A stretch of DNA of 64,000 bases from a virus. Lineage: Duplodnaviria; Caudoviricetes. A program made the position numbers and the translations under genes. The notes beneath the pieces are model-generated. The model had not been told where the DNA came from. It saw only the letters and a program-made list of their open reading frames with translations, and did no database searches. Positions 10,876 through 57,132 of the stretch are shown here, piece after piece. The first letter of the stretch is position 1, and every line of letters begins with the position of its first letter. Location: IMG/VR virus record IMGVR_UViG_3300013121_000013, positions 91,647-155,646 of that record; one strand, written 5' to 3'.

Positions 10876-12177
10876 GTGCTAAAAAGAGATTTCAAGGTAT
10901 ATGTATTAAATCCTGACGTGCATATAGATAAAGCAAATGATTCATCCAATTACAACTCATATAAATATAGAATGAAAGATTGCAAGTTGAGAAAGGATTG
11001 CGATGGACATAAAATTACAATAAATGGCTGCGGTCCATGGAAGTTCCATAATCACACCAAAGAAGGGTTAGATAGTTCGCTCCTTATGATGGCTATGGGA
11101 AGCGAATATGATTTATGCAGTTCTATCTATCTTTTAATGTCAAGGCGATGTAGAACTCAAGAGAATAAAGACTTTGAAATATTAGTTCCTGATGGCTGGT
11201 ATCATCATGATAATTTTATCTTTTCAACCGATTTAGAGAGTAGTGAATTTATTAAATTATATACAGGTTTACATTTGCTAAAGAGAATAAGGAGAAATTC
11301 CAGACCTTCAGGATCAGACTCTAGTAAGTATTCGGTCGATGACTTTTTTAAAGAAAATCCTGAACACGAAAAACTTACTGGAAAACAATTCAGATCTTTA
11401 TTTATAGAGAGTCTTTTGAAGAAGTTGAAGAATGAACTTATTAAAAGAAAAGTGAAAACACAACTTAACTCTATAAGTCCTAGATCATATACAAGCTCTA
11501 GAATGTATCGAATGCCGCGTACCTACGGCAGGGCTTATGCTGTAACTCGTCTTAGATTTACCAGAAAAGGTAACGGCACATTTCTTGATGCAATAGATTG
11601 TTCTCCAGATCCTAGACAAGATACATACTACAAGACCGCTAAACAACTAAGGGAGCTTGAGGCCGAAGATAAAAATAACAGGGATATAACTAAAATTATA
11701 TTTATGTTATCTGGCCTAACAAATTCAAGAAATAGACTAGTAGATTCAGCAGACAGTATACAGCTTGTTGGACCATTTTTAGACGAAAAAACAATCGATA
11801 TTAGTTATCTAGCTACATGTCTTGAAGCAGCTTGGTTTCAAAGTATATGTAATAAACTATATGGACCTGGCACTAAGATAGAAAGAATTAATTCTTGTAT
11901 ACAAGATGAAATTAAAAATATGGTTAAGAACAGGTCTCTTAATATGTCTGTAGAATCGAGCTTAAAACAAAGATACACTTATCTACCTTACAGTACCCAG
12001 TCTACAGGTAATGTTCGCTCTATTCGTAAAATGGAAAAGGTCAGAGAACAGTTCAGTACAAATATAAGAATCAGCCTTAATTTTGATATTAAAGATATAG
12101 AGCATGACTGTCAGAGAATTAAAACTATGTTGAAACAGTTTATTTTGGAATACGACAAGGTTAAAAAATTAAAATAA
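10876..12177 (+). CDS. hypothetical, C-H-H-C paralog family member 2
   Basis: DCDGHKITINGCGPWKFHNHTKEGLD...AMGSEYDLC. Confidence 0.7.
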   Translation: MLKRDFKVYVLNPDVHIDKANDSSNYNSYKYRMKDCKLRKDCDGHKITINGCGPWKFHNHTKEGLDSSLLMMAMGSEYDLCSSIYLLMSRRCRTQENKDFEILVPDGWYHHDNFIFSTDLESSEFIKLYTGLHLLKRIRRNSRPSGSDSSKYSVDDFFKENPEHEKLTGKQFRSLFIESLLKKLKNELIKRKVKTQLNSISPRSYTSSRMYRMPRTYGRAYAVTRLRFTRKGNGTFLDAIDCSPDPRQDTYYKTAKQLRELEAEDKNNRDITKIIFMLSGLTNSRNRLVDSADSIQLVGPFLDEKTIDISYLATCLEAAWFQSICNKLYGPGTKIERINSCIQDEIKNMVKNRSLNMSVESSLKQRYTYLPYSTQSTGNVRSIRKMEKVREQFSTNIRISLNFDIKDIEHDCQRIKTMLKQFILEYDKVKKLK

Positions 12178-51369: not shown

Positions 51370-51445
51370 GCCCCCGTAGACCAATTAGGCAGGAGTCAAG
51401 AGACTTAAAATTTCTACAGTGTGGGTTCGAATCCCACCGGGGGTA
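51370..51445 (+). tRNA. tRNA-Leu(TAA), short variable loop
   Basis: GCCCCCG/CGGGGGT, AGAGA-CTTAAAA-TTTCT, V loop ACAGT. Confidence 0.85.
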
Positions 51446-51446
51446 C

Positions 51447-51618: not shown

Positions 51619-51694
51619 GGCGCGGTAGACCAATTAGGCAGGAGTCGATTGCCTCAAAAGCAATACAGTGTGGGTTCGAATCCCACCCGCGCTA
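51619..51694 (+). tRNA. tRNA-Leu(CAA), short variable loop
   Basis: GGCGCGG/CCGCGCT, ATTGC-CTCAAAA-GCAAT, V loop ACAGT. Confidence 0.85.
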
Positions 51695-51713
51695 CGACTA
51701 GAGGGTTTGATGG

Positions 51714-52857: not shown

Positions 52858-52931
52858 GGGGAGTTAGGCAACAGGCAGACCACTTTCGCTTAGAACGAAA
52901 GATGCTGAGGGTTCGAATCCCTCACTCCCCA
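52858..52931 (+). tRNA. tRNA-Leu(TAG), short variable loop
   Basis: GGGGAGT/ACTCCCC, TTTCG-CTTAGAA-CGAAA, GAGGG-TTCGAAT-CCCTC. Confidence 0.83.
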
Positions 52932-52936
52932 CTTTA

Positions 52937-53011
52937 GCCGCGATAGACCAATTGGCAGGAGTCACTAACTTGAGGGGCTAGACAGTGCAGGTTCGAATCC
53001 TGCTCGCGGCA
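52937..53011 (+). tRNA. tRNA-Leu(GAG), short variable loop
   Basis: GCCGCGA/TCGCGGC, CTAAC-TTGAGGG-GCTAG, V loop ACAGT. Confidence 0.83.
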
Positions 53012-53016
53012 TTTAA

Positions 53017-53108
53017 GGGTATTGTACTCCTCTCAGGCTGTAACCCTGAGCCACTTAAATATAAAAGGAGCAGGACGTGGTAGTTGGGTTCAAGTCCCTC
53101 AATACCCA
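53017..53108 (+). tRNA. atypical tRNA-Tyr(GTA): no D-arm, enlarged variable arm
   Basis: GGGTATT/AATACCC, CTCAGG-CTGTAAC-CCTGAG, CCAC/GTGG arm, TTCAAGT T-loop. Confidence 0.65.
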
Positions 53109-55969: not shown

Positions 55970-56659
55970 ATGCTTGATGCAGTAATAGCGTCAGATTTTC
56001 ATCTTGGAAGCAGTAATTGCCAGGCTAAGGTTATTTGTGGTTTTTTAGAGAGAATTCTGGATCAAGAAATTTTAACTAGCCGACTCATTCTAAATGGTGA
56101 TATATTTGATTCTCTGGATTTTAATAGATTAGACAAGCACCATTGGAAGGTGCTATCTACGATTAGAAAACTATCTGATAAGATAGACGTATCCTGGCTT
56201 TTAGGTAATCATGACGGACCTGCAAGCGTAGTGTCGCATCTTCTTGGAGTGCATGTTTATAACGATTATGTATTTAAATCCGGCGATAAAAAGATACTAG
56301 TTCTACATGGACATATTTTTGATGATTTCATAACCAGATTTCCAATTGCTACGGCAATGGCTGACTACGTATATAAATTTCTTCAATGGGTTGACAAAAC
56401 TCATTATTTTGCTAAGATGGCTAAGCATGGAAGCAAGACTTTCCTGCGATGTGCAGAGCAAGTTAAGAATAGGGCTATTAAGTATGCTGATAAGAAGCTC
56501 TGCTCTGCCGTAATCTGTGGACATACTCATATGGCGGACTTTCCTATATCTGGCTCTTCTGCTATAGATTATTACAACACTGGATGCTTTACTGAGCTAC
56601 CGTGTGGATATGCAGAAGTTCAAGAAGGAAAAATTTTAATAAGATTTTTAAATAGATAA
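55970..56659 (+). CDS. UDP-2,3-diacylglucosamine diphosphatase (LpxH)-like metallophosphoesterase
   Basis: SDFHLG, NGDIFD, GNHD, LHGHIFD, CGHTH, YYNTG. Confidence 0.8.
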   Translation: MLDAVIASDFHLGSSNCQAKVICGFLERILDQEILTSRLILNGDIFDSLDFNRLDKHHWKVLSTIRKLSDKIDVSWLLGNHDGPASVVSHLLGVHVYNDYVFKSGDKKILVLHGHIFDDFITRFPIATAMADYVYKFLQWVDKTHYFAKMAKHGSKTFLRCAEQVKNRAIKYADKKLCSAVICGHTHMADFPISGSSAIDYYNTGCFTELPCGYAEVQEGKILIRFLNR

Positions 56660-56661
56660 AC

Positions 56662-56747
56662 GGGGTCGTGGCCGAGCGGACGAAGGTAGCGGACTTTTAA
56701 TCCGATGAGCGTAAGCTCCAACGTGGGTTCGAATCCTACCGGCCCTA
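56662..56747 (+). tRNA. tRNA with Lys(TTT) anticodon and a long variable arm
   Basis: GGGGTCG/CGGCCCT, CGGA-CTTTTAA-TCCG, V-arm GAGC-GTAA-GCTC. Confidence 0.8.
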
Positions 56748-56754
56748 TATTATT

Positions 56755-56840
56755 GCTCCTCTGCAGCCCACATGGGTCTTCTAAGCCTATGACTTAAACG
56801 GGTGGGATGGAAGTCTAGGGTTCAATTCCCCAGAGGAGTA
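56755..56840 (+). tRNA. atypical tRNA-Arg(TCT): no D-arm, enlarged variable arm
   Basis: GCTCCTC/GAGGAGT, CATGGGT-CTTCTAA-GCCTATG, ACTT/AAGT arm, TTCAATT T-loop. Confidence 0.65.
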
Positions 56841-56861
56841 TTTACACAATTTATTTGTTTT

Positions 56862-56937
56862 GGCCCCTAGGCTGGCTGGAAGCTAGGCAGCGGTCTTATT
56901 AACCGCAATAGGTCGAGTTCGATTCTCACAGGGGCTA
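56862..56937 (+). tRNA. tRNA-Ile(TAT)
   Basis: GGCCCCT/AGGGGCT, GCGGT-CTTATTA-ACCGC, TTCGATT. Confidence 0.72.
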
Positions 56938-56943
56938 CTAACT

Positions 56944-57015
56944 AGAGGCAAGGTGTAAAGGTCAGCACGCCGTCCTGATAAGACGGAAGTCAGGGTTCGA
57001 TTCCCTGTGTCTCTA
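56944..57015 (+). tRNA. tRNA-Ile(GAT)
   Basis: AGAGGCA/TGTCTCT, CCGTC-CTGATAA-GACGG. Confidence 0.88.
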
Positions 57016-57019
57016 TAGT

Positions 57020-57092
57020 GGGTCGCTAGCTTAATTGGAAAAGACCCTCACTGTGAATGAGGTGCATACTGGTTCGAATCCAGTGCGACCCC
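57020..57092 (+). tRNA. tRNA-His(GTG)
   Basis: GGGTCGC/GCGACCC, CCTCA-CTGTGAA-TGAGG, C73. Confidence 0.82.
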
Positions 57093-57132
57093 CTGTACAT
57101 TTTATATAATTAAATCTTTTAGGGGTAGAATT

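Follow-up and report, generated by a model that had tools for sequence, protein, structure and literature searches.

The 86-nucleotide gene at positions 56755-56840 (+ strand) of the analysed window, the window being the last 64 kb of a 155,646-base IMG/VR phage contig (approximately 76% complete), is almost certainly a real, conserved and structured RNA of a family here termed rewired tRNA-Arg(UCU). In this family no D hairpin precedes the anticodon arm of the transfer RNA (tRNA). A covarying helix (X) encloses the anticodon arm, while a second one (V) joins the bases following the anticodon stem with those preceding the T stem. The family is widespread in phages and in tRNA arrays, and it is this gene that occupies the place of Arg(UCU) in tRNA clusters. 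Judging from its sequence and those of its homologues, it probably serves as a functional tRNA-Arg(UCU) whose core is rewired, reading AGA and probably AGG too. A preliminary description of the locus had proposed a second D-armless Arg(TCT) tRNA with a linker able to pair with the loop of an extra arm, and this pairing is supported, both helices covarying among the homologues. The acceptor, anticodon arm, extra arm, T arm and discriminator listed there are likewise all present.

Anatomy of the gene and covariation of its helices

The elements of the gene are the following, A5 being the family alignment described below:

56755-56761, + strand: 5' strand of the acceptor stem (GCTCCTC), pairing with 56833-56839; G1·U72 is a wobble
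56762-56766, + strand: connector TGCAG from the acceptor stem to helix X, of variable length and sequence in A5
56767-56771, + strand: 5' strand of helix X (CCCAC), pairing with 56802-56806 and directly abutting the anticodon stem
56772-56790, + strand: anticodon arm (ATGGGT/CTTCTAA/GCCTAT), loop at 56778-56784, TCT at 56780-56782, with U33 and A37
56791-56795, + strand: 5' strand of helix V (GACTT), pairing with 56811-56815
56796-56801, + strand: A-rich unpaired segment AAACGG in the V loop; a TAAA/TTAAA-like motif recurs in most homologues
56802-56806, + strand: 3' strand of helix X (GTGGG), pairing with 56767-56771
56807-56812, + strand: D-loop-like segment AT-GG-AA, whose A's at 56811-56812 also open the 3' strand of V
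56811-56815, + strand: 3' strand of helix V (AAGTC), pairing with 56791-56795
56816-56832, + strand: T arm (TAGGG/TTCAATT/CCCCA), with an A·C mismatch at 50.64 and the T loop at 56821-56827
56833-56840, + strand: 3' strand of the acceptor stem (GAGGAGT, 56833-56839) and discriminator A (56840)

The anticodon arm contains a stem of five base pairs (bp) and a loop of seven nucleotides (nt), TGGGT/CTTCTAA/GCCTA, with U33 and a purine at 37. The stem can be extended to 6-7 bp, its outermost A-T pair being positioned like the 26.44 pair. The T loop shows the canonical motif GGTTCRANTCC, and GGTTCAATTCC forms a T arm of the GTTCRANYC type whose stem has one A·C mismatch. The GACTT/AAGTC stem encloses a 15-base loop, AAACGGGTGGGATGG, and an eighth acceptor pair, T56762-A56832, is possible. 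The 7-bp acceptor stem is followed by only 10 bases, which form no hairpin, before the 6-bp anticodon stem starts. The term D-armless is misleading as a label, since a D-stem-like helix and a D-loop-like GGA are present in another order.

Standard gene finders do not recognise this layout. ARAGORN made no call for 56755-56840 in its standard, intron or low-threshold modes, nor in its metazoan-mitochondrial mode at the normal threshold, and the Rfam model RF00005 (gathering score 29 bits) gave no match to the gene even at an expectation value (E) of up to 10. The minimum-free-energy fold of the single sequence is a different, non-conserved structure (z = -1.6) and was uninformative. Another reading would be an ordinary tRNA gene, permuted or interrupted by an intron and processed to a normal cloverleaf. 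Permuted and intron-bearing tRNA genes are known in other lineages, and approximately 20 extra bases lie between the anticodon and T arms. Nevertheless, such an origin is very improbable. The gene is not permuted, because both acceptor strands sit at its ends. Removal of no single segment yields a 10-25 D hairpin, there being no partner 5' of the anticodon arm; the gene finder found nothing with introns allowed; and the supposed extra segment is the very part that covaries with the 5' connector.

Homologues were sought with patterns in which CTTCTAA and the T loop were fixed throughout and GGA in two of the three scans. A scan of IMG/VR for the anticodon loop, the T loop and a GGA placed at the same uncommon distances as in the query gene gave at least 115 loci, compared with roughly 20 estimated by chance, and at least about 43 of them have a full acceptor stem and the layout of the query. 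A MAFFT alignment of the Arg gene with a rewired Tyr copy from the same window was structurally meaningless, and the first covariance model (R1) was therefore built from the query Arg sequence alone. At E≤0.001, it matched 57 other loci among the listed pattern-selected viral ones (58 including the query), with scores of 30-68 bits. The 39 distinct sequences, query included, found among the matches listed constitute the type-1 set, on which all counts out of 39 are based. A5 is the model-fitted alignment of this set and R2 the corresponding family model. R2 scores the query gene at 82 bits, a partly circular value as the query is in the seed, while the ordinary tRNAs of the window reach 27.6 bits at most, and it gave no match at E≤1e-6 in 965 kb of other, unrelated phage tRNA loci. 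The same pattern, applied to 185,579 prokaryote genomes, revealed 28 further type-1 genes, mostly in metagenome-assembled genomes of Pyrinomonadaceae and other Acidobacteriota.

Other routes to relatives were unproductive. A BLASTN search of the cluster against GenBank phages returned generic tRNA matches only, and an exact 33-mer of the gene had no match in viral contigs. As regards flanking proteins, an open reading frame (ORF) resembling LpxH was useless, having more than 1000 bacterial homologues, and a RuvC-like ORF gave nothing. The heptamer ACTTAAA, common to the Arg and Tyr copies, retrieved almost only anticodon loops of ordinary tRNA-Leu(UAA).

The acceptor columns of the type-1 alignment are 99.3% paired, with double changes at all seven pairs, and the inner five pairs of the anticodon stem covary as well. 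The outer pair next to X (columns 18-36) is A-U, G-U or, in 12 of 39, unpaired, resembling 26.44 of ordinary tRNAs in this respect. For the structure as a whole, the covariation score was 0.725, compared with 0.197 upon shuffling, none of 500 shuffles reaching the observed value, and shifting the partners by 1 to 3 columns in either direction lowered pairing from 90.7% to 33-48%. If the gene were a pseudogene decayed from a tRNA, or a tRNA-like stretch arisen by chance within the cluster, its rejection by gene finders and its T-stem mismatch would be accounted for. This explanation is, however, close to refuted by the homologues (39 distinct viral sequences and 28 bacterial ones), in which four helices show compensatory changes, as well as by the intact anticodon loop of what is the only Arg tRNA of an AGA-rich phage.

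Helix X is formed in the query by CCCAC/GTGGG, five pairs which enclose the anticodon arm. Its columns (13-17:51-55 of A5) are 98.5% paired, with changes on both sides at five of five pairs; pair 15-53, for instance, is C-G in 16 sequences, G-U in 10, U-A in 10, A-U in 2 and G-C in 1. There are 21 different 5' strands, such as CCCAC, CCGAC, CTTGC, CCTCC, CCAGC, CCTAC, CCCGA and CCGCC, each accompanied by its complement. Moreover, RNAalifold predicts the helix independently. A register defined by anchors and involving no fitting, in which the five bases before the 6-bp anticodon stem are set against the five that end two before the last GGA, gave 5/5 pairs in 35 of the 39 sequences and 4/5 in the remaining four, whereas pairings across sequences reach 5/5 in 12%. 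Two registers had been offered for the linker and the loop. The pairing CCCA:TGGG, which extends to CCCAC:GTGGG, is complete in 36 of 39 sequences, while the alternative GCCC:GGGT is complete in only two and was rejected. Also, the difference between the Tyr and Arg copies had been likened to a compensatory substitution; strictly speaking it is not one, being a parallel of two different families, and the true covariation comes from the homologues.

Helix V pairs the bases just after the anticodon stem with those just before the T stem, as GACTT/AAGTC (5 bp) in the query and as GTCTT/AAGAC, GGCGT/ATGCC, ATCGT/ATGAT, AGC/GCT, ACG/CGT or CCA/TGG, among others, elsewhere. The mean length of native V stacks is 3.28 bp, while strands paired across sequences give 2.41 bp, and the native value was not reached in any of 2000 permutations. 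Thirteen different 3-bp combinations occur, and a full 3-bp V exists in one of two registers of A5 in 23 of 39 sequences. The 3' strand of X lies within the loop closed by V, so that X and V would jointly make an H-type pseudoknot. The query forms a small subgroup with its two closest homologues, L175 and L253, which share its connector of 4-5 nt (GCAG/GTAG), the 5-bp V and the T-stem sequence TAGGG...CCCC with the A·C mismatch. From these sequences, the predicted pseudoknot is well supported for the subgroup and less so for the family as a whole, and it is likely to form in the query copy.

A working tRNA-Arg(UCU) with nested helix X only, which would fold into a three-way junction around a large internal loop and contain neither V nor a pseudoknot, was also considered. 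It would agree with the short-loop subgroup, where V amounts to 2 bp (CC/GG; 12 of 39), with the 16 of 39 sequences devoid of a full 3-bp V in either register, and with the fact that V of the query uses the two A's after GG, which clashes with an A20/A21 role for them. This option is nonetheless doubtful. V has 3-5 bp in the subgroup of the query, with compensatory combinations (GAC/GTC, GTC/GAC, GGC/GCC, AGC/GCT, ACG/CGT, ATC/GAT, CTC/GAG and others), and, in addition to the permutation result, a 5-bp closing stem appeared in only 0.5% of shuffles of the query sequence, and both helices together in 0.085%.

The preliminary description had also remarked upon a GG following the loop strand. GGA stands two bases after the 3' strand of X in all pattern-selected members (AT-GGA at 56807-56811 in the query). 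In the scan made without demanding GGA, it is kept in at least 13 of 14 type-1 members, all of which had been recovered before, the exception being L407 with GGT, and all new type-2-like members (see below) carry TGGA.

As regards the division of pairs between the acceptor and T stems, positions 8 and 65 pair in 27 of 39 sequences and positions 49 and 65 in 4 of 39. Since 8-65 pairs far more often, the type-1 family is mostly 8/4. The query itself fits either T8-A65 or T49-A65, and its nearest relative L253, with G8-C65 and T49, favours the 8/4 reading, in which the T stem of the query would be AGGG/CCCC.

Arg(UCU) slot, codon demand and neighbouring genes

The phage genome encodes a DNA polymerase, helicases, a primase, a ribonucleotide reductase and many auxiliary genes. 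In its 155.6 kb, ARAGORN found 24 tRNA genes, 17 of them inside the window. These ordinary tRNAs cover 16 amino acids, with none for Arg, Tyr, Asp or Trp. The anticodons of the two rewired genes are precisely those of Arg and Tyr, and tRNA-Asp and tRNA-Trp were not found even when the 24 ordinary and 2 rewired genes are taken together. The remark that AGA is a very frequent codon was correct: in 117 long ORFs of the genome it makes up 58% of Arg codons, or 31 per thousand codons, AGA and AGG together amounting to 74% of Arg codons.

The same slot is occupied in other genomes. Other tRNA genes accompany 29 of the 39 viral type-1 loci, and an Arg(tct) gene called by ARAGORN lies nearby in only one of the 39 (L253) and in none of the 28 bacterial loci, that is, in 1/67 overall. 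The bacterial genes are mostly found inside arrays of up to 34 tRNA genes in 8 kb, often at the same slot (L275, L277, L283, L291, L293, L296, L314, L317, L325, L347, L350 and others). In L314, for example, the rewired Arg(UCU) has Thr(cgt) and Met(cat) as its two neighbours. The canonical Arg genes of the arrays are Arg(gcg), Arg(cct) and Arg(tcg), never Arg(tct). Genome G027 has, besides the rewired gene in an array, a canonical Arg(UCU) outside it, from which it follows that the arrays are accessory sets whose Arg(UCU) member is the rewired gene. For the same reason, being the sole AGA reader in the cell failed as a decisive test. In L253, a rewired (11188-11272) and a canonical tRNA-Arg(tct) (11336-11411) are 64 bases apart.

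A conserved tRNA-shaped RNA could also act outside translation, as a decoy or sponge that draws off host anticodon nucleases or other defences directed at tRNAs, as a regulator, or as a target or primer of a phage enzyme. Phage tRNAs do counter tRNA-cleaving defences: anticodon-loop variants are found among those that do so (PMC10264068), phage tRNA-Tyr counters retron-Eco7 and phage tRNA-Lys counters PrrC (PMC11555353), and a T5 tRNA counters PARIS (PMC11464382). Furthermore, this phage carries odd Lys and Tyr tRNAs plus an array of tRNA-like Y RNAs, and L253 and G027 possess a canonical Arg(UCU) in addition to the rewired one. Such a role outside translation is nevertheless improbable. A decoy would need neither a covarying full acceptor stem, a discriminator, a canonical T loop and GGA at the D-loop position, nor to be the sole gene of Arg(UCU) type in 66 of 67 loci, and the demand for AGA in a phage with no other Arg tRNA also speaks for translation.

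The cluster that holds the gene and the second rewired tRNA of the window, both on the + strand, are as follows:

56662-57093, + strand: tRNA cluster, in the order Lys(TTT), rewired Arg(TCT), Ile(TAT), Ile(GAT), His(GTG)
53017-53108, + strand: second rewired tRNA of the window, Tyr(GTA), with X CTCCT/AGGAG, V CCAC/GTGG and then GGA

The rewired Arg gene is separated by 7 and 21 bases from the adjoining tRNA genes, and no terminator-like site was found on the + strand within the cluster. No CCA is encoded at its 3' end, and the same applies to the adjoining tRNA-Lys(TTT) gene (56662-56747). This upstream gene is itself 86 nt long, with a long class II-like variable arm that is unusual for Lys; in the viral locus L212, Lys(ctt) and Lys(ttt) genes of 87 nt lie beside the rewired Arg. 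Four tRNA-Leu calls of ARAGORN in the window (51370-51446, 51619-51695, 52858-52932 and 52937-53011) have only 75-77 nt, a class I size, and are devoid of the long variable arm expected for a bacterial-type tRNA-Leu. Upstream of the cluster, the LpxH-like ORF mentioned above (55970-56659, 229 aa) has around 60% identity to bacterial LpxH (UDP-2,3-diacylglucosamine pyrophosphatase). As a host-like lipid A gene in a phage, it points to a Gram-negative host.

The R2 model aligns the Tyr copy in the same architecture (34.4 bits, E 2.8e-9), a better score than that of any ordinary tRNA in the window. A viral contig with 30 tRNAs (L166) resembles the query phage in having both a rewired gene of Tyr(GTA) type and a rewired Arg(UCU) (L166:3908-3994 and L166:13635-13719). 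A weak R2 match was also noted in the Y-RNA region of the phage genome (G000:C1:10355-10429). In addition, second and third rewired Arg(UCU) layouts, named type 2, occur in viral contigs (L149, L153, L158, L187, L188, L391-L458 and others). Their order is acceptor, TA, a strand of 4-5 bases, anticodon arm, GTTAA, partner strand, TAAYTGGAG... and T arm, often with an encoded CCA, and some have a longer spacer (...TGAAAATG...).

Proposed fold and its implications

Along the gene, the strands follow one another as acceptor 5', connector, X 5', anticodon arm, V 5', A-rich loop, X 3', AU-GG-AA, V 3', T arm and acceptor 3'. In the proposed fold, helix X would enclose and stack on the anticodon arm, giving 5 + 6 = 11 stacked pairs, close to the approximately 10 layers contributed in an ordinary tRNA by the D stem, the 26.44 pair and the anticodon stem. 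The 5' strand of X would take the place of D-stem positions 22-25 and its 3' strand that of positions 10-13. The AU-GG-AA segment which follows the latter would be a relocated, minimal D loop, and its bases (AT-GG-AA at 56807-56812) may be the equivalents of A14, U17, G18 G19 and A20 A21. The elbow could then arise from docking of G18 and G19 with the canonical T loop, while the loop in which the 3' strand of X and GG lie would be closed by helix V, producing the H-type pseudoknot. In this way, the molecule would keep its L shape through a different wiring.

The identity elements of E. coli arginyl-tRNA synthetase (ArgRS) are A20, C35 and U/G36. C35 and U36 are present in the query, and an A follows GG where A20 would sit, so placed that it could serve as the identity base for the enzyme. 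The RNA would be expected to be processed, charged by ArgRS and used by the ribosome. Bacterial machinery does tolerate drastic change in the region of the D arm, because a synthetic tRNA fully without it, 'mini HisT', is accepted by the histidyl-tRNA synthetase, EF-Tu and ribosome of E. coli (PMC11551756).

Several observations weigh against a working, rewired tRNA-Arg(UCU). In the query sequence taken singly, the pairing of X is within chance, as 5-bp helices between the linker and the variable region appear in 16% (Watson-Crick pairs only) to 43% (with G-U) of shuffles. The two-pair V of the short-loop subgroup means that the pseudoknot may not be family-wide. The T stem is weak, since with its A·C mismatch it would retain three G-C pairs if read as 8/4. 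The conservation of CTTCTAA, the T loop and GGA is partly built in, because the search patterns demanded them. The rewired copy is not always the sole AGA reader, because G027 and L253 also hold a canonical Arg(UCU). Finally, true orthologues are missing from sister genomes, because R1 had no match in any of 26 DNA-polymerase relatives of the phage (G001 and 25 others; 36-40% identity), which have 0-4 tRNAs each.

On balance, it seems somewhat more probable than its opposite that phages and, in some bacteria, mobile tRNA arrays use topologically rewired, fully functional elongator tRNAs together with ordinary bacterial synthetases, EF-Tu and ribosomes; these would be the first natural non-cloverleaf tRNAs outside mitochondria, and they may persist by escaping host nucleases that recognise normal tRNA-Arg, tRNA-Tyr and tRNA-Ile. 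Resistance to host tRNA-targeting nucleases is the leading guess as to why the layout is kept, a reasonable one because the Lys, Tyr and Arg tRNAs of this phage all have unusual bodies and because phage tRNAs replace host tRNAs destroyed by nucleases.

Every cytosolic or bacterial tRNA is taken to be a cloverleaf. If the proposed reading is true, the L shape can be reached by more than one secondary structure, and nature offers a test of what synthetases, ribonuclease P, EF-Tu, modification enzymes and the ribosome read in a tRNA, as well as new scaffolds for orthogonal tRNAs. The tRNA counts of phage genomes would also be systematically too low, the Arg and Tyr genes having both been missed here. 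Moreover, a layout that shielded the tRNA from tRNA-cleaving defence systems would represent a new kind of counter-defence.

Comparison with known tRNAs

Full-text literature searches yielded no paper describing a tRNA wired in this manner. The canonical tRNA-Arg(UCU) (RF00005), such as E. coli argU, shares with the rewired gene the acceptor with discriminator A, the loop CUUCUAA, the T loop GGUUCAAUUCC and a GGA possibly supplying G18, G19 and A20, together with the position inside a tRNA cluster and what appears to be a role in reading AGA. Unlike the canonical cloverleaf, the rewired gene has no D hairpin at 10-25, its D-stem-like strands flank the anticodon arm and its D-loop-like segment comes after that arm; a second helix makes the predicted pseudoknot, and the length is 86 nt, compared with about 76.

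With the mitochondrial D-armless tRNAs, such as bovine and human mitochondrial tRNA-Ser(AGY) and nematode mitochondrial tRNAs (PMC7609411), and with 'mini HisT', the gene has in common the absence of a D hairpin in the usual place and a short connector from the acceptor to the anticodon branch. Those molecules are, however, shortened to approximately 54-62 nt, have lost the contact between D loop and T loop, and adopt a Y shape (PMC11551756). The rewired Arg, in contrast to the mitochondrial ones, has 86 nt, a covarying replacement helix, GG and a canonical T loop, and would work with bacterial machinery. It looks built to keep the elbow, because a D-stem-like helix, GG and the canonical T loop are retained.

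The (8/4) tRNAs and allo-tRNAs (Mukai et al., PMC5389517) resemble the family in the 8-bp acceptor and 4-bp T stem, apparently its rule, in the long extra arm, and in having members in phage tRNA clusters and in Acidobacteria. Nevertheless, the (8/4) and (9/3) tRNAs are described as cloverleaves of Ser, His, Cys and Sec species, while the rewired Arg has no D hairpin, and the words 'pseudoknot', 'tRNAArg' and 'UCU' are nowhere mentioned in that paper (PMC5389517). Finally, class II tRNAs (Leu, Ser and bacterial Tyr) also have a stem-loop between the anticodon and T arms. The class II variable arm is, however, an extra beside a normal D arm, whereas the loop of the rewired Arg carries a D-stem-like strand and GG, and would thus replace half of the D arm.

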